A DNA stretch of 64,000 nucleotides. Origin: Rickettsiales bacterium (lineage in GTDB: Bacteria > Pseudomonadota > Alphaproteobacteria > Rickettsiales > JABIRX01). The notes under the pieces are model-generated. The model made no database searches, was not told the DNA's origin, and saw only the letters and a list, made by a program, of their open reading frames with translations. Shown here in pieces: positions 2,162 to 38,281 of the stretch. Position 1 is the stretch's first letter; the number at the start of each line of letters is the position of its first letter. The position numbers were made by a program, and so were the translations under genes. Where the stretch lies: contig JAWUXM010000002.1 of assembly GCA_034111325.1 (NCBI GenBank), positions 80,774 through 144,773 of the forward strand. The letters run 5' to 3'.

Positions 2162-3553
2162 ATGATAATTACCAGTTTCTGCGTTTCTCTTTTTATTATC
2201 ATTCTAATAGGTGTTTCATCCTCCATAAAAAATCGTCATACTAGCACTGATTACTTCCTTGCTGGTCAGAGCCTAAAGCCTTGGTTGGTGTCTTTATCAG
2301 CAGTTGCTACTAATAGTAGTGGCTACATGTTTATAGGCATGATTGGCTATACTTACATGGTTGGCCTTTCCTCTATATGGCTCATGATCGGTTGGATTGG
2401 TGGTGACTTTTTATCATCCCTTTTCATTCATAAACACCTACGTGTAGCAACTGAGCGGGGGAAAGTGCTTAGCTTTGCTGGTGCCTTAAGTAACTGGCAT
2501 GGCAATAATTATCGAGTTTTACAATTCGTAGGCGGTTTAATCACTATAGCTTTTCTTGGTATATATGCCGCAGCGCAATTAAGTGCCGGCAGTAAAGCCC
2601 TACATGTATTGTTCGGGTGGGACTATGCAGTTGGAGCAATAATTGGCGCTATCATGGTAGCACTATACTGCGTTGCTGGGGGTATAAGAGCTTCTGTTTG
2701 GACAGATGTAGCACAATCTTTCATTATGATAATTGCTATGGCTGCATTGTGCGTTATGTCGATAGCCGAATTCCCGCATTTAACAGACTTTGTAGATAAA
2801 TTACACGATGTCTCTCCCAGCTATATGAGCCTTTTCCCTAAATCCTCTAACAGTATTGGTGGGCTGCTACTATTTATATTAGGGTGGGTGTTTGCCGGCA
2901 TAGGTGTAATTGGGCAACCACATATCATGGTAAGGTTTATGGCTATGAATCAGCCAAGTGATATCAAGCGAGTTCGTATTTACTATTATAGTTGGTATAG
3001 CTTGTTTTACCTTTTAACTATTGGCACAGGTTTCGCAGCACGTTTGCTTTTACCAGATATTAACAACTTTGATGCAGAATTAGCTTTGCCAACCTTGGCA
3101 CAAAATTTATTGCCGGAGATACTGGTAGGGTTGGTGTTAGCAGGGTTATTTGCAGCAACAATGTCCACTGCGGATTCTCAAATATTAAGTTGCTCAGCAG
3201 CGATTACACATGACCTCACTTTAGGCAAAAAGCTGCCTTACTTTGTCGCAAAGATAACCACGATTCTTGTCACCATAACAGCATTACTAATTGCTTTATT
3301 TGGTAGCAAAAGTGTGTTCTCCTTGGTGTTAATTGCATGGTCTGCTTTGGCAAGTTGCTTTGCACCATTATTAATTATCTATGCATTTGGTGGCAAGCCT
3401 TCCGAAAAACTAGCCCTGATGATGATTACCACTGCTATATCGACCATGTTTATTTGGCGTTATTTCAATTTAAACAACATTATGTATGAAGTAGCACCGG
3501 CTATGATAGTTGGGTTGTTAACTTATGCGCTAGGAACAGCCTTGAAAAAATAA
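2162..3553 (+). CDS. Sodium:solute symporter (SSS) family transporter, PutP-like
   Basis: Polytopic membrane protein. N-terminal YFLAGQSL..W..S..ATNSSGYMFIGMIGYTY is typical of the SSS family. Confidence 0.8.
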   Translation: MIITSFCVSLFIIILIGVSSSIKNRHTSTDYFLAGQSLKPWLVSLSAVATNSSGYMFIGMIGYTYMVGLSSIWLMIGWIGGDFLSSLFIHKHLRVATERGKVLSFAGALSNWHGNNYRVLQFVGGLITIAFLGIYAAAQLSAGSKALHVLFGWDYAVGAIIGAIMVALYCVAGGIRASVWTDVAQSFIMIIAMAALCVMSIAEFPHLTDFVDKLHDVSPSYMSLFPKSSNSIGGLLLFILGWVFAGIGVIGQPHIMVRFMAMNQPSDIKRVRIYYYSWYSLFYLLTIGTGFAARLLLPDINNFDAELALPTLAQNLLPEILVGLVLAGLFAATMSTADSQILSCSAAITHDLTLGKKLPYFVAKITTILVTITALLIALFGSKSVFSLVLIAWSALASCFAPLLIIYAFGGKPSEKLALMMITTAISTMFIWRYFNLNNIMYEVAPAMIVGLLTYALGTALKK

Positions 3554-3635
3554 AAGGGTGGGAGCCGAAGCTTCCACCCCCTTACGAGAGAGATATGAGA
3601 ATCCCTAGTGTAACACACCATAAACAACTATGCAA
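3545..3635 (-). ncRNA. Candidate small RNA gene, copy 1 (promoter + ~55-nt transcript + intrinsic terminator)
   Basis: On the minus strand: -35 TTGCAT (3635-3630), 17-nt spacer, -10 TACACT (3612-3607). The transcript reads GGGAUUCUCAUAUCUCUCUCGUAAG, followed by hairpin GGGUGGAAGC-UUCG-GCUCCCACCC and a UUUUAUUUUUU tail. About 100 bp is paralogous to 35164-35262. The hairpin could also terminate the upstream FMN-reductase gene. Confidence 0.4.
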
Positions 3636-3685
3636 CTCCTAATTGTACTATTTAACTAAAAATTCTAATAAAAGTTGTATATGCC

Positions 3686-4261
3686 CTAAGAGCCATGCTT
3701 TTTGCTTGTTTCCACAAAAGCTTCGACAGCCGCTTTTAACATCTTTTGCTGCTTTGCATCTTTCAAATCACCACTCTCATCAAAAATATTACTAGCAAAT
3801 GAGAGCGCTACTTGATTAGGTATCACCAAAACACCGATATTCCCTAGCATCATACGTAATGGCACGAGACCACGCAAACCACCAAAGCCTCCCGGAGAGG
3901 CAGCGCTGATTGCGGCGACCTTACCATTAAACGCTATAAGTGGGGCTTCGTTTGCTTCTGATGGACGAGAGATCCAATCTAAAGAATTTTTAAGTAGAGC
4001 AGAAAAAGAGCTGTTATATTCAGGGGAAGCAATGAAAAATCCATCTGCCCGACGAAACACTTCTTTTAACTTTTGGACATTTTCTGGCAAGCCAGATTCC
4101 ACTTCTAAATCACCATTGTAAATTGGCATTTCATAATTTGCCAAATCAATGACTTCTGCATTTGCACCAAGCTCAGCAGCTATCTTACAGGCTAGCTGCG
4201 CTAGTTTTGTGTTGAGAGAATCTTTACGAATTGAACCAGAGAGGAAGATTAGTTTTGTCAT
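3686..4261 (-). CDS. NADPH-dependent FMN reductase family oxidoreductase
   Basis: MTKLIFLSGSIRKDSLNTKL and SPEYNSSFSALLKNSLDW motifs. The start overlaps the pirin stop (TAATG). Confidence 0.8.
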   Translation of the reverse strand: MTKLIFLSGSIRKDSLNTKLAQLACKIAAELGANAEVIDLANYEMPIYNGDLEVESGLPENVQKLKEVFRRADGFFIASPEYNSSFSALLKNSLDWISRPSEANEAPLIAFNGKVAAISAASPGGFGGLRGLVPLRMMLGNIGVLVIPNQVALSFASNIFDESGDLKDAKQQKMLKAAVEAFVETSKKHGS

Positions 4262-26355: not shown

Positions 26356-27210
26356 ATGCAACTAGTTCAAAATATTCAAGAAATTATCGATCAATATGAT
26401 TTTTTCATATTAGATTTATGGGGAGTTATCCACGATGGACAAGCGACTTACCCAAATGTCCTCGCAACGTTAGAGTTATTAAAAGCCAAAGATAAGAAAG
26501 TGATTTTCCTTTCTAATGCACCACGCCGCGCCTCTAAAGCAGAGGAAGTCTTGACGCAGCTAGGGATTAAGGGAGATTTATATATTGATATTATAACCTC
26601 TGGTGAGGTTGCATATCAAACTTTTAAAGCAGAACAAACGGAGCAAATTAAACCATATTTCTATATCGGGCCAGAAAAAGACCGTGCTGTTTTTGATGGT
26701 TTAAATTGCCAAGAAATAATGGATGCAAGTAAAGCAGAGTTTGTTTTAGCGACTGGTTTTGAAGTCGGTGGGAAAATGGATGATGTGATGCCACAATTAA
26801 AGGATGCTGCGCGATATAAACTCCCTATGCTTTGTGTGAACCCTGATAAAATCGTCGTTCGTCAGGATGGCTCTGTGCAGCTTTGCTCAGGTTTGATGGC
26901 TGATGAATATAAACAATTAGGTGGTGAAGTAACATATTACGGCAAGCCTTATCCAAAGGTTTACGAACATATTTTTACTAAATATCCTACTATTGATCGT
27001 AGCAAAATCCTTGTCGTTGGCGATGCTTTGGAGACGGATATTAAAGGTGCGCACGATAATGGGCTAGATTCTGCGTGGATTGTTTCAGGAATTCACCTAA
27101 AAGATCTAAATATTAAATTTGGCGAGATGCCAGAGCTAGCAGATCTCAAAGCAATGACCCAAGATTTCAATACTGTTCCAAACTATATTTTGCCAAAATT
27201 TGGCATTTAA
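26356..27210 (+). CDS. HAD-superfamily hydrolase, subfamily IIA
   Basis: FILDLWGVIHDG (motif I), LSNAP, and GDALETDIKGA (motif IV). Confidence 0.75.
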   Translation: MQLVQNIQEIIDQYDFFILDLWGVIHDGQATYPNVLATLELLKAKDKKVIFLSNAPRRASKAEEVLTQLGIKGDLYIDIITSGEVAYQTFKAEQTEQIKPYFYIGPEKDRAVFDGLNCQEIMDASKAEFVLATGFEVGGKMDDVMPQLKDAARYKLPMLCVNPDKIVVRQDGSVQLCSGLMADEYKQLGGEVTYYGKPYPKVYEHIFTKYPTIDRSKILVVGDALETDIKGAHDNGLDSAWIVSGIHLKDLNIKFGEMPELADLKAMTQDFNTVPNYILPKFGI

Positions 27211-27218
27211 TTATAAAA

Positions 27219-27234
27219 TGTTTCACGTGAAACA
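27219..27234. promoter_or_regulatory. parS: parS site, perfect TGTTTCACGTGAAACA
   Basis: Exact consensus palindrome, 9 nt after the HAD hydrolase stop. The flanking sequence is related to the parS modules at 28402 and 28706. Confidence 0.8.
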
Positions 27235-27433
27235 TTGACGAGATCATGCGGAAACCGCAGACCCTTCATTTTTTAGAGCTTGTTTTTAACCTACAATGTC
27301 TAGCAAGCCACAAAACTGGCTCGCCCTCCCTCAATTGACTTTTACTACTTCTCCATTTTGCCTTTGCAAAAAACATTTAATAGTGCGTTAATGGATATAA
27401 AAGTAATATAACCAACCGAAAAACTGTAATATC

Positions 27434-28393
27434 ATGAGTAAAATCGAGATTTATACTAATAAAAACAATGAGGCTTCAATTGAAGTCCAGTTTGAAAACG
27501 AAACTGTTTGGCTTACACAAAGTCAGATAAGTGACCTTTTTGGAAGAGACAGAACTGTAATTTCAAGGCATTTAAATAATGTATTTAAAGAAGGTGAGCT
27601 TGAGAAAAAAAGCAATATGCAAAAAATGCATATTGCAAATTCTGACAAGCCCGTCGAGCTTTATAACCTTGATGTGATTATCTCAGTTGGCTATCGAGTC
27701 AAATCAAAACAAGGCACGCAATTTAGAATTTGGGCGACTAATCGCTTAAAAGAATATTTAGTTCAAGGCTATTCCATCAACGAAGAGAGGCTCAACCAAT
27801 TACAAAAAACCATTAAACTTATTGGTAAAAATATTGATGTAGAGAATGTTGATTTGGGGGAAGCAAAGGGTATGCTTAATATAATCAAAAACTACAATGA
27901 GAGCTTTGTTTTGCTTAATCAATTTGATAGCAATAGCTTAGAAACAAAGCATCTTAATAGAAACATCACTTACGCAATAAAGCATGATGAAGCTTTGCTA
28001 GCAATAACCGAACTCAAAAACCAACTCATTAAGAAAAAAGAAGCAACCGAGTTGTTTGGTAATCGAAAAGACGATTCTTTTCAGGGCACTTTGGGTAATA
28101 TTTTACAAAGTTTCGGCGGAGAATATCTATATCCCTCAATTGAAGAACAGGCGGCAAATTTGCTTTATTTAACCATTAAAAACCACTCGTTTTCTGACGG
28201 CAATAAACGCATCGGCGCCTTTATGTTTATTTGGTTTTTAGAGAAAAACAAACACTCCTTTAAAAAAACAGGCGAGCTCAAGATAAATGATAATGCCTTG
28301 GTGGCTCTTGCTTTATTGGTTGCGAGCAGCAACCCAAGTGACAAAGATTTAATGGTAAAATTAATAATTAATTTAATCAAAGACCAAAAATAG
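27434..28393 (+). CDS. RhuM-N-terminal domain fused to Doc-type Fic domain (RhuM/Fic/DOC family protein)
   Basis: The N-terminal half, VWLTQSQISDLFGRDRTVISRHLNNVF...YNLDVIISVGYRVKSKQGTQFRIWATNRLKEYLVQGY, matches the RhuM family. The C-terminal half has the Fic/Doc core HSFSDGNKRIGAF (HxFxDGNKR, Doc-like NKR). Confidence 0.8.
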   Translation: MSKIEIYTNKNNEASIEVQFENETVWLTQSQISDLFGRDRTVISRHLNNVFKEGELEKKSNMQKMHIANSDKPVELYNLDVIISVGYRVKSKQGTQFRIWATNRLKEYLVQGYSINEERLNQLQKTIKLIGKNIDVENVDLGEAKGMLNIIKNYNESFVLLNQFDSNSLETKHLNRNITYAIKHDEALLAITELKNQLIKKKEATELFGNRKDDSFQGTLGNILQSFGGEYLYPSIEEQAANLLYLTIKNHSFSDGNKRIGAFMFIWFLEKNKHSFKKTGELKINDNALVALALLVASSNPSDKDLMVKLIINLIKDQK

Positions 28394-28401
28394 AGATGGG
28401 A

Positions 28402-28479
28402 AACCATAATGTTTCACGTGAAACATTCACAGGATCCCGCAGATAACTAAGCTTTATGGTTTTTTTGAGCGTCAAATTT
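28402..28479. repeat. parS-carrying ~78-bp direct repeat, copy A
   Basis: AACCATAATGTTTCACGTGAAACATTCACAGGATCCCGCAGATAACTAAGCTTTATGGTTTTTTTGAGCGTCAAATTT is near-identical to 28706-28782. Confidence 0.85.
28410..28425. promoter_or_regulatory. parS: parS site, perfect TGTTTCACGTGAAACA
   Basis: Exact consensus, 17 nt after the Fic/Doc gene stop. Confidence 0.8.
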
Positions 28480-28518
28480 AATAAATAGTTCTTATGGCAT
28501 CTCACACTAAAATATCGT

Positions 28519-28630
28519 CATAGCCTGAATTGCGTAGCAATTCTAAGGCTATCCAGGAGCTACAAACAATTATTGCGCCCTTTACTCCTAGACTCCCTTA
28601 GAATTCCTGCGGAATTCAGGGAGTGACGCG
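28519..28630. repeat. Two-hairpin MITE/RPE-like element, family A (inverted copy)
   Basis: Its reverse complement, CGCGTCACTCCCTGAATTCCGCAGGAATTCTAAGGGAG...ATAATTGTTTGTAGCTCCTGGATAGCCTTAGAATTGCTACGCAATTCAGGCTATG, aligns with 25675-25788. Confidence 0.75.
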
Positions 28631-28705
28631 GCAAGCAAGGGAGTAATAAATATTTTTATCCGGTAGTGTGATGGCATATATAAAACAGCCTTAACATCAT
28701 AATTG

Positions 28706-28782
28706 AACCATAATGTTTCACGTGAAACATTGACAGGATCCCGCAGATAACTAAGCTTTGTGTTTTTTTGAGCGTCAATTTT
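28706..28782. repeat. parS-carrying ~78-bp direct repeat, copy B
   Basis: AACCATAATGTTTCACGTGAAACATTGACAGGATCCCGCAGATAACTAAGCTTTGTGTTTTTTTGAGCGTCAATTT. Confidence 0.85.
28714..28729. promoter_or_regulatory. parS: parS site, perfect TGTTTCACGTGAAACA
   Basis: Exact consensus within direct-repeat copy B. Confidence 0.8.
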
Positions 28783-28804
28783 TCTATTTATCACTCCGCA
28801 GCGA

Positions 28805-29077
28805 CTATGTTTTTTCGCTGATAATCACTGAAAAACCATTTTCCTCACAACTTTTCAACAGCTCTGTAGATAGATAATCAAGTTTACGAATAGTTTCCTG
28901 ATATTTTCTGAGCCAATCTTCCGTAACAAACAATTGGAATTTCTGGAGCTTATTAGCAAAATCTTCACAGCTTTTCATAGCATAGCGCATATTATTCTGC
29001 ACTTGTGCATAGCTACTCACAATATTTTGCATCTCAATATAAACGTTGGTGGGGTTGGTAGATTTGGATTTTGTCAT
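28805..29077 (-). CDS. Hypothetical 90-aa protein (island orphan)
   Basis: Clean ORF starting MTKSKS. It looks helical and has no motif I recognise. It shares an upstream hairpin architecture with the KAP NTPase gene. Confidence 0.45.
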   Translation of the reverse strand: MTKSKSTNPTNVYIEMQNIVSSYAQVQNNMRYAMKSCEDFANKLQKFQLFVTEDWLRKYQETIRKLDYLSTELLKSCEENGFSVIISEKT

Positions 29078-29484
29078 GATGGTTACCTATAAAAGTTACT
29101 AAGCTTTAAAACGCACACATATAAGGAGCAGGTGCTAGGGCGTTAGTAAGCCGCCAAAGACAGCCGACTGCACCTTACGATACAGCCCGCCCTAGCATAA
29201 AAGCATAATCTTTGAAGGTTACTAAGCCTTAGTGGCTAGAATGGTAATCTACCACTTGAAAGTCAATGAAAAGCTTCTCTTTCTATGAATTTGCGCACTT
29301 TGCATCTTAAGGAAGCGCTGAGATGAGCTGGCTGATATTTTGTCTTCTTGGGAATTTATTTGGTTGCGAGGGTTAAAGCCTTTGTTTATAAGGATTTGAC
29401 ATAGTAGTTGCGGCACATCAAAATCTTTTTTAGAGAAAAATTAGAATAGCACCAATTATTACTAAACCCGCAATGGTCATAATA

Positions 29485-30924
29485 TTAATCAAAGAAATTT
29501 AGACACATATCAACCTTTTTTGATATACTGTCCATAAAACTACCACTGCCATTATAACTGCCATGATGAGAACCAAGAATGCTTTGAGCCCCTCTAAGAA
29601 GATAGCTTTGCTGAGCTTGATAAGCCTGGTCTTGGGCACTAATTAGAATAAAAGGGTGAAGATATTCTATAAGAAAGTCTGTATTTGCTTGATAATTTTC
29701 TTTGGTTTTAATTATATAAAGCGTCATTTCAGCCCACCAAGAACTGCCAACTAAATTATCTTTTTTAATTAATCCATGTTTTTCAAAGAGCTGAATATAG
29801 TCTTGGTATAAAAAGCTACCTTCTCTAATTCTTTTTGCATTTTCTTCATTATCTAACAAAATCGCAATATAAAGAATCGCTGCAAGTAAAATTCCATGCA
29901 CCTTCTTTGTGCCTTGCTGTGCTGTTAGAGTATGAGATAATATTCTAAAAAACTCATCTACTTGTCTTGGAGACAAGTTAAAACAATTACAAATCTCGCA
30001 TATTTGCTCTTGTACGTACTCAATTATATTGTTTGTATAGAATCTATCTGCCCGCCCTTGTCCAAAATACTCTTCAACTTTTGACTTAATATATGACAGA
30101 ACAGCGTTCTCATCTGGCTTTGGAAGGCTAACATTCCTGTGAATGAATTTTCTGTAATATTCTGAAAAATCTAGGTCTCCATATAAGCATCTAATTGATG
30201 ATTCTAGATGCCCTTTGTCTACCCCTAAAATAAATACTACCCCTTTAGTTTGAAAGAAGTGTTTAAGGGTTTCTAGAAAATGAACTGCGTAATTTGGTCT
30301 AGACCTATCCAACTCATCAACTAGGATGAACAAAGGCTTATTTTCTAATGAAGAAATATAACTTTTTAATGACTTATTTAGCTGTTCAAACAAATTGCTC
30401 TTTTCAACATATTCTTTGAAAATTGCATTACCCATTTTTTCATCTCTATCTTTCATGTCTTTTTCAACTATTTCAGCGCATTCCTTTACATTAATCCCTG
30501 TAAATTTATTGATAACTTGATTGGTTGCAATTGCACAACTGCCAATCACCATAAAAAGAGTCTCTTTCAGGCAACTTGTTATTTCTTCATCCAACCCTTT
30601 TTTCTTGTTTAAATGGTCTATTATCTCAGAAGCGATTGTAACTACTGGTTCGTCAAAAAAGTCATTTTTCCAAGCATTGATATGAATAACATCATATTCT
30701 TGACCAACTTCTAAACGGTTCTTCATCATTTCTAAAAAACATGATTTGCCAGAACCAAACTGTCCATTTAGACTCATTACCAAGCTACCTTCAACATGAG
30801 GATATTCAGCAACTACATGTTTTATTAATTTCTCAGCAAAACTTTTTAGGTCCAATTTGTCAAAATGATCAAATGTTTTATCTAAGTTGTTTTTTGCTAA
30901 TTCTGGACCAGTCTCTTTTGTCAT
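29485..30924 (-). CDS. KAP family P-loop NTPase
   Basis: Walker A LNGQFGSGKSCFLEMM is followed by INAWKNDFFDEP. After a long insert comes Walker B FILVDELDRSRPNYAVHFLETLKHFF, then VFILGVDKGHLESSIRCLYG. This is the canonical KAP motif order. Confidence 0.85.
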   Translation of the reverse strand: MTKETGPELAKNNLDKTFDHFDKLDLKSFAEKLIKHVVAEYPHVEGSLVMSLNGQFGSGKSCFLEMMKNRLEVGQEYDVIHINAWKNDFFDEPVVTIASEIIDHLNKKKGLDEEITSCLKETLFMVIGSCAIATNQVINKFTGINVKECAEIVEKDMKDRDEKMGNAIFKEYVEKSNLFEQLNKSLKSYISSLENKPLFILVDELDRSRPNYAVHFLETLKHFFQTKGVVFILGVDKGHLESSIRCLYGDLDFSEYYRKFIHRNVSLPKPDENAVLSYIKSKVEEYFGQGRADRFYTNNIIEYVQEQICEICNCFNLSPRQVDEFFRILSHTLTAQQGTKKVHGILLAAILYIAILLDNEENAKRIREGSFLYQDYIQLFEKHGLIKKDNLVGSSWWAEMTLYIIKTKENYQANTDFLIEYLHPFILISAQDQAYQAQQSYLLRGAQSILGSHHGSYNGSGSFMDSISKKVDMCLNFFD

Positions 30925-31242
30925 TATTTATCTAAATAAAAATTCATTTCACGTAAAAAAGGTGTCAGGGTGTTTGTAGATCGTACATAGTCGACCCTGA
31001 AAGCGTTACCACAATCAGCACCCTGACATAATAGGCCACTATCGCTTCCTAAGAAACGCTATGTACGTGCTACAAAACACAAACGAAGTATTAATCTCTG
31101 GTTAGGCAGGTGTCAATATAGGATGCGTAAGCTTTGCGATAATTAAAAAAATATAATCGCACGAACGATATTTTGCGGCAACAGTGCGGCAATGAGTTTT
31201 TATGTGGGGCTGAGGCAAAAGCCAAGAAGCCTTGGTTTTATG

Positions 31243-31319
31243 TGGTTGCGGGGGCAGGATTTGAACCTACGGCCTTCAGGTTATGAGCCTGACGAGCTAC
31301 CAGACTGCTCCACCCCGCG
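31243..31319 (-). tRNA. Initiator tRNA-fMet (anticodon CAT), CCA encoded
   Basis: The reverse complement reads CGCGGGGTGGAGCAGTCTGGTAGCTCGTCAGGCTCATAACCTGAAGGCCGTAGGTTCAAATCCTGCCCCCGCAACCA. It is 77 nt and near-identical to E. coli tRNA-fMet. It has the C1:A72 mismatch hallmark. The anticodon stem is UCAGG/CCUGA, giving two rather than three G:C pairs next to the loop. Confidence 0.95.
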
Positions 31320-31803
31320 CTAATGACTTAGATTGTTTATGCGTTTTGCACATTGGAATCTAAGGAGAGCGCATTTTGTGGGTTTTCGGCTAAGAGTCAA
31401 GGTTTTATACTAGGCAGCCTGCTCTTATGTGCTGGATATTGTAAATTAATTCGTGACACTCGCACAGTATGGACCCCTGCCTGCGCAGGGATGACGGCTT
31501 GGACGTTATTTTGCGCAAACGTCAGCCTAATAACGACATTCATCTTTAAATGCACATTTCTTGTAGGCATAAAAGCTAGGGGTTTTTGTCACAATCCTAC
31601 GGATAGAAGTAAAATTAGCGATATAGCTTCGTGCAATTTCTCGCCAATAGCTTTGGCTATTAGCTTTACGATTCTACGTGGCTACTCAGCATCTAATTTT
31701 ACATAACTGCAAATGCGTATTTAAAGATGAATGTCGGTATAAGATAAGATATTGCATTAGCAGGAAACCCCTACTATAACTGAAAAAATCACTGAATTTA
31801 TAC

Positions 31804-32733: not shown

Positions 32734-33365
32734 TGCAAAACCCCTCCCCTGATCTAGAAAAAATCTATATAAATCTGTGTAACATCACGAATGTTTCACG
32801 TGAAACATTCGTGAGATTGCAGCAATACGTTGACTTCCTTATAAAAAACAACGCTAAAATAAATTTAATTGGCAAGAATACCACAGCAGATATTTGGCAT
32901 CGCCACATATTCGATTCAGCACAAATTCTACAACATCTACCAAAAGACACAAAACGAGTTATAGATATAGGAACTGGCGCTGGTTTGCCAGGAATTATCC
33001 TATCTATTCTTGGTATTGAGGAAGTTGATTTAGTTGAATCAATTACTAAAAAAGCTAATTTTTTACGTGAAGCTGCACAATTCTCGCCTAATAAAATTAA
33101 TGTTTTTAACGATAGGGCTGAGGATTTGATAGCATGGGAAAGCGATGTGGTCACCTCTCGTGCCTGCGCACCGCTTGATAAATTACTTGGTTTTACTGAA
33201 AAATTGATTGCAAAAAGCAAAATTTGCGTATTCCTTAAAGGTAGAAATGTAGAGGAAGAAATTTTGCAGGCTAAAAATACATGGTCTTTTGATTATGATT
33301 TAGCCAAAAGCCTTACTGCGGAAGATTCTTACATCATTAAAATAAACAACGTAAAACATTTATAG
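32733..33365 (+). CDS. rsmG: 16S rRNA (guanine527-N7)-methyltransferase RsmG (GidB)
   Basis: NVSRETFVRLQQYVDFLIKNNAKINL N-terminus and SAM motif DIGTGAGLPGI. It lies immediately upstream of parAB. Confidence 0.9.
   Translation: MQNPSPDLEKIYINLCNITNVSRETFVRLQQYVDFLIKNNAKINLIGKNTTADIWHRHIFDSAQILQHLPKDTKRVIDIGTGAGLPGIILSILGIEEVDLVESITKKANFLREAAQFSPNKINVFNDRAEDLIAWESDVVTSRACAPLDKLLGFTEKLIAKSKICVFLKGRNVEEEILQAKNTWSFDYDLAKSLTAEDSYIIKINNVKHL
32792..32807. promoter_or_regulatory. parS: Intragenic parS site (perfect) inside rsmG
   Basis: TGTTTCACGTGAAACA is embedded in a 28-bp perfect palindrome at 32786-32813. It encodes the conserved VSRET of RsmG. Confidence 0.8.
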
Positions 33366-35036: not shown

Positions 35037-35052
35037 TGTTTCACGTGGAACA
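35037..35052. promoter_or_regulatory. parS: parS site TGTTTCACGTGGAACA (one position off perfect palindrome)
   Basis: It lies 9 nt after the parB stop. The sequence equals the reverse complement of the classic B. subtilis parS TGTTCCACGTGAAACA. Confidence 0.8.
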
Positions 35053-35171
35053 TTGCTGTAAAACCCTAGTTTTCTGGGATCCTCTTTAATTTTAGAGCTC
35101 TAAAAGATTATTGTTTCACAAATACACACCCTGAATAATCACCTGATGCTAGAATAAAATTCAATTAGTGG

Positions 35172-35262
35172 TTGCATTGCTGTTTGCCCTATGTTATAAT
35201 GGGGATTCTCATATCTCTCTTGTAAGGGGGTGGAAGCTTCGGCTCCCACCCTTTTATTTTTT
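35172..35262 (+). ncRNA. Candidate small RNA gene, copy 2 (sigma70-like promoter + ~55-nt transcript + intrinsic terminator)
   Basis: -35 TTGCAT (35172-35177), exact 17-nt spacer, -10 TATAAT (35195-35200). The transcript reads GGGGAUUCUCAUAUCUCUCUUGUAAG. The hairpin is GGGUGGAAGC-UUCG-GCUCCCACCC (35228-35251) with tail UUUUAUUUUUU (35252-35262). Confidence 0.5.
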
Positions 35263-35303: not shown

Positions 35304-35450
35304 GTCATCCTGAACTTGTTTTAGGATCTACTGAATTAGCCAATAGTTTAATAAGTATAGCTTTTATCATTAACAGCATGATGTTATTACAAATTTCTTA
35401 CCCCTTATTTTTGTTTGGCTACGCAGATCCTGAAACAAGTTCAGGATGAC
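35304..35450. repeat. MITE-like unit bounded by 26-bp inverted repeats
   Basis: GTCATCCTGAACTTGTTTTAGGATCT (35304-35329) matches the reverse complement of AGATCCTGAAACAAGTTCAGGATGAC (35425-35450) at 25/26 positions. Each arm is itself a small hairpin (ATCCTGAA/TTCAGGAT). Confidence 0.65.
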
Positions 35451-37639: not shown

Positions 37640-37726
37640 TGCAATATTACTGCTAATAGCAAAAACCCCCTTTGCTTTTTTAATATTGTGATCTTGCATT
37701 ACGCAATCTTACGAGAGAGATATGAC

Positions 37727-38281
37727 ATGTTAAATATACCCTATTCACCAGCCAGAGTGGCAAATAGCTTTTTAGCCTTGGCTAACAAGAATAATGCCAC
37801 TATTACGCAAATGCAGATCCAAAGTCTGATCTACCTTGCGCAAGGCTGGTGTCTAGCTCTCAAAAACAAGCCTTTAATCAACGAAGCCTTGCTTGCTTGG
37901 CGCTTCGGCACAATCTCCACGTCAATTTTTCATGAGTTCAAACATTTTGGCAACGGCGCCATCAAATCACCAATGTTAGAGCTTCTCGTTGAAAAGGGTA
38001 ATGCACGCTGGCATCATACGACAATATCAGACACTGACAAATTTACTATGAACCTTCTTGCAGAAATTTGGGAATCTTACAGCGACTATCAGACTGACGA
38101 ACTAACCCAGATGACCTGCTGCGCTAAAAGCCCTTGGCAAAAAATATATAAAATAGGAGAGAAAGAAGGCATTGTTTTTGGCAAAGAAGTTCCCAATTGT
38201 GATATAAAAGAGTTCTTTCTAAGTAACCTCGCAACGAAAACCCCGCAAATTCCTCTGTTGGAGAATTCTCCTGCAACTTAA
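37727..38281 (+). CDS. Panacea-domain (DUF4065, SocA/PanA-like) protein, orphan
   Basis: ITQMQIQSLIYLAQGWCLALKNKPLINEALLAWRFGTISTSIFHEFKHFG matches the DUF4065 core pattern (LQKLLYxAQGW...PLFxExxxAWxxGPVxxxxYxxFKxFG). The likely start is ATG 37727; the track ORF starts at GTG 37688. Confidence 0.7.
   Translation: MLNIPYSPARVANSFLALANKNNATITQMQIQSLIYLAQGWCLALKNKPLINEALLAWRFGTISTSIFHEFKHFGNGAIKSPMLELLVEKGNARWHHTTISDTDKFTMNLLAEIWESYSDYQTDELTQMTCCAKSPWQKIYKIGEKEGIVFGKEVPNCDIKEFFLSNLATKTPQIPLLENSPAT

Follow-up and report, generated by a model that had tools for sequence, protein, structure and literature searches.

The leader of a Panacea-domain gene carries, next to its start codon, 18 nucleotides that are complementary to the predicted 5' part of a small RNA (sRNA) encoded in two copies within the same 64,000-nt stretch of DNA (the window), which is origin-proximal chromosome of an uncultivated Rickettsiales-like alphaproteobacterium. 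We hold, with about even confidence, that this is a dedicated trans-antisense sRNA that would block translation initiation of the Panacea gene. The features involved are as follows, numbered from the first letter of the window.

37727-38281, plus strand: Panacea-domain (DUF4065/SocA-like) gene, 184 aa, without an adjacent toxin gene and with GTI in the place of the GPV signature
37708-37725, plus strand: target site in the leader of the Panacea mRNA, from -19 to -2 of the ATG, with the purine run GAGAGAGA inside it
37659-37681, plus strand: weak A/T-rich hairpin and T-run 3' of bioB, with no convincing promoter between it and the Panacea ATG
3607-3645, minus strand: promoter of sRNA copy 1, with CAATTAG at 3645-3639, -35 TTGCAT at 3635-3630, a 17-nt spacer and the extended -10 TGTTACACT (hexamer 3612-3607)
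3545-3603, minus strand: predicted sRNA copy 1, ~59 nt, with 5' GGAUUC, the 18-nt seed, GG, the hairpin GGGUGGAAGC-UUCG-GCUCCCACCC at 3579-3556 and a U-run at 3555-3545
3581-3598, minus strand: seed of sRNA copy 1, UCAUAUCUCUCUCGUAAG, 18/18 Watson-Crick with 37708-37725
35162-35200, plus strand: promoter of sRNA copy 2, with CAATTAG, -35 TTGCAT at 35172-35177, a 17-nt spacer and the extended -10 TGTTATAAT (hexamer 35195-35200)
35204-35262, plus strand: predicted sRNA copy 2, ~59 nt, equal to copy 1 except for C>U in the seed, with the hairpin at 35228-35251 and the U-run at 35252-35262
35209-35226, plus strand: seed of sRNA copy 2, UCAUAUCUCUCUUGUAAG, 17 Watson-Crick pairs and one G:U with 37708-37725

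A scan of both strands of the window located CTTACGAGAGAGATATGA exactly at 3581-3598 and 37708-37725 on the plus strand, and the complementary sequence, which has one C>T change, at 35209-35226. When up to three mismatches are allowed, these three sites in the 64-kb window compare with 0.01 expected from 100 dinucleotide-preserving shuffles, none of which (0/100) reached three sites. The match is far beyond chance, and the figure of about 1e-4 that a sequence-only reading of this DNA had given for an exact 18-mer match to a 60-nt query in 128 kb is arithmetically correct. Copy 1 is encoded on the minus strand and copy 2 on the plus strand, so both sRNAs are complementary to the plus-strand 18-mer at 37708, as that reading had described: the scan and the sequences bear out the perfect complementarity to copy 1, the identity to plus-strand 3581-3598 and the single wobble with copy 2. 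The sole difference in the copy 2 seed (T for C) faces a G, and the resulting G:U pair keeps the pairing intact. In the leader, the 18-mer is followed by C37726 and then by the ATG at 37727-37729, and so ends 1 nt short of the start codon.

The placement of the site depends on where the Panacea gene begins. The NCBI annotation starts it at GTG 37688 (197 aa), in which case the 18-mer would fall within the coding sequence, whereas the JGI annotation (contig Ga0455689_028910 of metagenome 3300041951) starts it at ATG 37727 (184 aa). An exhaustive HMMER search with the Panacea protein recovered 5,152 homologues at E <= 0.001 (a word-indexed search returned the self-match only), and in 24 homologues the N-termini, of the form 'MPYS..AVAN.FL', align to 'MLNIPYSPARVANSFL'. 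Since the two coincide, ATG 37727 is the start, as first proposed and against the NCBI GTG, and the 18-mer spans -19 to -2; a leaderless or GTG-initiated Panacea mRNA is ruled out by the same N-termini. The assignment of the gene to the DUF4065/Panacea family is confirmed by Pfam (SocA_Panacea, PF13274, E = 1.8e-11). The further claim that the 18-mer covers the Shine-Dalgarno region stands in part: the site is within the usual ribosome footprint, with or without a Shine-Dalgarno role, but Shine-Dalgarno use is weak in this organism and, because most of its genes have no clear one, to read GAGAGAGA as the Shine-Dalgarno of the Panacea gene is an assumption, if a plausible one.

The sRNA unit is 105 nt long, and its two copies are 87% identical and lie in opposite orientations. 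Both follow the order CAATTAG block, -35 TTGCAT, 17-nt spacer, extended -10, ~8 nt, 18-nt CU-rich stretch, hairpin and T-run, with a common promoter pattern (TTGCAT-17 nt-TGnTAYAMT) and a common terminator made up of a GC-rich UUCG hairpin and then UUUUAUUUUUU. As judged from the sequence, each copy is an independent transcription unit with promoter and Rho-independent terminator signals of its own. With the 5' ends placed from the promoter spacing, the predicted RNA has a CU-rich, unstructured 5' part of ~22 nt and the terminator directly after it, and folds at -26 kcal/mol (z = -4.5); the 18 nt that match the Panacea leader are its accessible part.

Differences between the two copies are unevenly spread: 12/42 promoter positions are mismatched, as against 1/60 transcribed positions (Fisher p = 7e-5). 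The promoters have kept their -35, TG and -10, and the spacer differs at 7/17 positions (41%). The homology sets in sharply at CAATTAG, ~20 nt before the -35, and breaks off directly behind the T-run; outside these limits the copies are unrelated. This is the pattern that a real, constrained RNA gene would be expected to leave, although the high identity of the transcribed part could have come from gene conversion limited to that segment and not from selection. The sRNA had no match in Rfam at gathering thresholds, and the best hits of a permissive search (E = 0.45-8) fell far short of the cut-offs. The hairpin and the upstream block occur twice each in the 64-kb window, and a third sRNA copy was not found in 7.8 kb of added contig to its left. 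The sequence-only reading had allowed for the case that the 18-mer is a mere fragment of a dispersed repeat; this is unlikely, since 64 kb + 7.8 kb yielded two complete units and a single 18-nt match, which do not make up a large repeat family or a MITE. An att integration site or an inversion junction was rejected because core genes (rsmG, parAB, def, bipA) occupy the 34 kb between the direct copies, and is also disfavoured in that the copies share nothing past the 18 nt with the Panacea site. At the 3' end of copy 1 (region 3545-3598), the U-run overlaps the last codons and the stop of a convergent sodium:solute symporter gene (2162-3553); in the direction of the symporter the hairpin has no T-run, so that transcription of the symporter may continue through it and give the mRNA a 3' end perfectly antisense to the sRNA.

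The pairing, its position and its energetics, like the promoter and terminator signals and the constraint, come from sequence and computation. The duplex with the Panacea leader has an energy of -30.4 kcal/mol for copy 1 and -28.3 kcal/mol for copy 2, and the opening costs are 5.7 and 5.1 kcal/mol for the respective seeds and 4.8 kcal/mol for the target. The duplex-energy check proposed along with the original claim thus gave strong pairing after accessibility costs, at a net of about -20 and -19 kcal/mol (cofold ddG of -20.3 for copy 1 and -18.8 for copy 2). In a scan of both strands of the window (128 kb), with the antisense strands of the sRNA genes themselves set aside, the Panacea site was the best, against a background of -8.6 +/- 3.3 and a next best of -24.7, which belongs to a bulged duplex within a coding sequence. 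In a comparison of 59 translation-initiation regions, the Panacea site stood at -30.4 vs -15.7 for the runner-up, and a reverse scan from the Panacea leader led to the two sRNAs at z = -8.7 and -8.0. As the site is an outlier both among window sites and among the 59 start regions, the pair looks dedicated, and the window shows no regulon to which it would belong; the target scan covers the 64-kb window and the copy count the 64 kb + 7.8 kb, or ~72 kb of genome.

In the mechanism proposed here, two near-identical sRNA genes would be transcribed independently, each yielding an RNA of ~59 nt, from ~3603 to 3545 on the minus strand for copy 1 and from ~35204 to 35262 on the plus strand for copy 2. 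The 5' end of this RNA would pair with 18 contiguous bases of the Panacea mRNA (-19 to -2), in the purine-rich region that leads up to the start codon, and the duplex would bar the 30S subunit from the leader, so that Panacea protein would be made only once sRNA levels fall. A perfect 18-bp duplex could also draw cleavage by RNase III. We infer here the transcription of both partners, the 5' end of the sRNA, the repression and its physiological purpose. The earlier prediction of trans-antisense occlusion of the ribosome-binding site is favoured by the signals, the constraint, the accessible seed, the placement and the energy, but no relative with the sRNA or the 18-mer was found in the genome, metagenome, viral, phage and plasmid collections.

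Genome contigs scanned with TCATATCTCTCTYGTAAG gave seven single matches in unrelated phyla and none in a relative, which by our estimate is about the chance level. Metagenome contigs (a set to which the source sample does not belong) gave 42 single matches to the same pattern in unrelated contexts, 0 of them with the sRNA hairpin. Viral contigs did not contain the hairpin pattern, and a blastn search of phages and plasmids with the sRNA unit gave no match. Around the nearest ParB homologue (51% identical) the gene order downstream of parB differs, and the locus is not syntenic. In the two closest Panacea homologues (42-45% identity) the leaders are unrelated and the 18-mer site is absent, and an antisense partner was not found in their short contigs. 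The pairing is known from a single genome. The contigs of these closest homologues are AT-rich, and each Panacea gene is followed by co-directional uncharacterised genes, which in one contig (3400-7165) encode proteins of 257 and 777 aa to which Pfam assigns no domain with confidence and in the other (709-2865) a 462-aa protein with a DnaT DNA-binding domain. Such downstream genes could be unrecognised toxin partners.

Among the alternatives, the one that survives best, though we consider it unlikely, is an evolutionary leftover, in which the leader 18-mer and the seed share ancestry through a short duplication, a templated patch or a rearrangement and no regulation takes place, one or both partners being unexpressed or the two never meeting. 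The identity of the 18-mer does prove common origin and not function. Moreover, the Panacea gene could be a decaying foreign gene: its GC3 of 0.43 is the highest among 15 genes compared (0.23-0.37 in the others), which is a mild hint at foreign origin, a sequence scan of the bioB-to-gltX region recognised neither a promoter nor a terminator of its own, and the GPV signature, with Pro in at least 90% of 25 aligned sequences, is replaced by GTI. Read-through from bioB is possible, because only the weak hairpin and no convincing promoter precede the Panacea ATG, and at the other end a mere 9 nt, with no terminator among them, separate the Panacea stop from that of the convergent gltX. A cis-antisense promoter opposite the leader was rejected, as the sole minus-strand promoter-like site would start downstream of the 18-mer.

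Against decay, the Panacea ORF is complete and can be aligned with its homologues from one end to the other. The GTI cannot be read as inactivation either, since substitutions of one GPV residue were tolerated in experiments and neutralisation was lost only in a double mutant (PMC8832971). Only the 18 nt bounded by the 5' end of the sRNA and its terminator stem are shared by the leader and the sRNA unit, both flanks being unrelated, and the similarity so stops abruptly at the exact limits of the functional seed, which would not be expected of a random fragment of a 105-nt unit. Such a fragment would also be unlikely to come to lie antisense on -19 to -2 of a start codon (an estimated ~1% of window positions). 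Finally, the promoter spacer has diverged by 41%, yet the 18 nt are kept at 18/18 and 17/18 (G:U).

It is rather improbable that the sRNA is real but has its main job elsewhere in the genome, with the Panacea leader as a secondary target or a titrating decoy. CU-rich seeds can pair with many purine-rich ribosome-binding sites, the genome examined amounts to ~72 kb, and two sRNA genes are generous for one target. However, no start region in the 64 kb comes near as a competitor (-15.7 vs -30.4). Members of a regulon tend to share only short seed matches, and perfect 18-nt pairing is typical of dedicated pairs. The pairing seen here is unusual for regulons and fits dedicated pairs such as OrzO/zorO (PMC3919570).

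The remaining readings turn on the surroundings of the gene. The gene order is rsmG-parA-parB, sRNA copy 2, bioF (minus strand), bioB (plus strand), Panacea, gltX (minus strand) and rpsP-rimM-trmD-rplS. The best ParB relatives are 43-51% identical, and their few named sources include Rickettsiales MAGs and Wolbachia. The palindrome TGTTTCACGTGAAACA, which we take to be the canonical parS centromere site, is present in six copies (five exact and one with 1 mismatch, vs 0 expected), one of them between the parB stop and sRNA copy 2:

2063-2078, 27219-27234, 28410-28425, 28714-28729, 32792-32807 and 35037-35052: palindrome TGTTTCACGTGAAACA

The window is placed near the origin because these parS-like palindromes cluster around rsmG-parA-parB. 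Between the terminator of sRNA copy 2 and the end of bioF, 35304-35450 forms a long hairpin of 147 nt (26-nt arms 96% complementary; RNA fold -56 kcal/mol, z = -9) followed by a U-run on the minus strand; this is probably either an element of bioF (terminator or 3' UTR) or a small MITE. An island-like stretch at ~27200-31320 adjoins a tRNA-Met (31243-31319, minus strand), contains a KAP-family P-loop NTPase gene (29485-30924), a Fic/RhuM-domain gene and small ORFs without assigned function, and has 64-nt repeats with parS-like palindromes (27211, 28402, 28706) at its flanks. On the same contig, ~4 kb left of the window start (3419-3949 of the flanking sequence), there is a type II toxin-antitoxin (TA) pair of the relB / yafQ(parE) kind.

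There is no adjacent co-directional toxin gene, bioB lying upstream of the Panacea gene and the convergent gltX 9 nt downstream. To call the gene an orphan is therefore correct but unremarkable, given that only about half of Panacea proteins are in TA-like loci (PMC8832971). The yafQ-like and the Fic-domain genes are possible unlinked toxins for an orphan antitoxin. On that footing a hybrid RNA/protein TA system can be imagined, in which the duplicated sRNA would act as an 'anti-antitoxin' that sets the level of the unlinked Panacea antitoxin and hence the toxin threshold, the candidate toxins being the YafQ-like gene to the left of the window and, at a distance of ~10 kb, the Fic/Doc-like gene (at about 27.4-28.4 kb); in the mirror image, a diverged Panacea protein would itself be toxic and the RNA its antitoxin. 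We regard this as improbable and speculative, but if true, either version would add an RNA layer, so far undescribed, to Panacea modules.

A type I-like TA system would keep the same pairing mechanism and change its biological meaning: the Panacea protein, with its altered GPV and no partner, would be growth-inhibitory and the sRNAs its RNA antitoxins. A small sRNA, 16-21 nt of perfect pairing by the 5' end and duplicated sRNA genes one base apart are all in keeping with such systems (PMC3919570; RalA with 16 nt, PMC4041452). Nevertheless, the target is a soluble-looking protein of 184 aa rather than a short hydrophobic peptide, the sRNA genes lie at distances of 2.5 and 34 kb and not next to it, and Panacea proteins are known as antitoxins and not as toxins (PMC8832971), which makes this reading quite improbable.

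The idea that the 18-mer is a DNA operator of a shared transcription factor, one that closely follows both sRNA promoters and precedes the Panacea gene, can take up the three identical or near-identical copies near transcription or translation starts, but is very improbable, as the 18-mer has no dyad or direct-repeat symmetry, it faces one way relative to transcription at the sRNA genes and the other way at the Panacea gene, its sole substitution is of the kind that preserves RNA pairing, and protein-binding sites are rarely known to need 18/18 identity.

We return to the dedicated trans-antisense sRNA. If its pairing is functional, a Panacea-domain gene would for the first time have been linked to an RNA regulator, and this regulator would be a very clean, minimal antisense RNA (seed and terminator) in an uncultivated, deep-branching Rickettsiales-like bacterium; to our knowledge, very few sRNA-target pairs have been reported from this group. 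With one sRNA and one site, the pair offers a simple test case. Occlusion of the ribosome-binding site by a trans-encoded sRNA is a textbook principle, and the advance would therefore lie in its scope and not in its mechanism, with a new target and a new sRNA family, as predicted from the sequence, for a well-known type of regulation. Its weight would rise if the sRNA gates an antitoxin that guards an unlinked toxin.

The earlier statement that such a layer had not been described for Panacea/PanA modules agrees with the literature within a limited search, in which work on sRNA control of antitoxin mRNAs gave no Panacea example and a word search of PMC8832971 gave no RNA regulator (sRNA or antisense) of Panacea genes. 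The asRelE2 RNA of Mycobacterium tuberculosis, which acts on the type II TA locus relBE2, is the one precedent for such antisense control, but it is cis-encoded and targets the toxin mRNA via RNase III (PMC9325379), whereas the sRNA described here would be trans-encoded with an antitoxin-like target. As in PanA/PanT, the Panacea domain is present and the protein aligns over its full length with more than 5,000 homologues; unlike these type II systems, the gene has GTI for GPV and no neighbouring toxin gene, and for the latter reason it falls outside PanAT.

Among trans-acting sRNAs of TA systems, IstR-1 acts at a ribosome standby site far upstream and not at the start codon, and IstR-1/tisB and OhsC/shoB have membrane peptides as targets and adjacent genes. 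RalA needs Hfq and pairs in the coding region, and RalR is a demonstrated toxin. The present pair is like IstR-1/tisB and OhsC/shoB of E. coli in that the sRNA lies outside the target gene and its 5' end has 18-21 nt (19 nt in OhsC) of complementarity to the 5' UTR (PMC3919570). It is like RalA/ralR of the rac prophage in that a trans-encoded sRNA has a perfect match (16 nt in RalA) to the mRNA of a non-membrane, enzyme-type TA protein (PMC4041452).

The closest resemblance in sRNA anatomy is to short-complementarity type I antitoxin RNAs of the OrzO/zorO type. The 5' end of OrzO represses zorO through 18 continuous perfect pairs, of which 15 contiguous nt suffice, and this extent of pairing makes Hfq dispensable (PMC3919570). 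As in OrzO/zorO and OrzP/zorP of E. coli O157:H7, the predicted pairing comprises 18 bp, is made by the sRNA 5' end and involves the 5' region of one mRNA, and as with OrzO and OrzP, which differ by few bases, there are two homologous sRNA genes (PMC3919570). The zor genes, however, encode small, hydrophobic toxic peptides and sit beside their sRNA genes in divergent orientation, whereas here the gene encodes a 184-aa Panacea protein and housekeeping genes lie between it and the sRNA genes. Set beside the features that define type I TA systems, the perfect complementarity of 16-21 nt is present (18/18 for copy 1; 17/18 + G:U for copy 2), but the target is not a small (usually <60 aa) hydrophobic toxin and the sRNA genes are not adjacent, divergent or overlapping, copy 2 being 2.5 kb away with bioF and bioB between and copy 1 34 kb away, and on these two counts the pair does not belong to type I. 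If it is functional, the short-perfect-complementarity design of enterobacterial type I systems would reach a new target class and a new gene arrangement.
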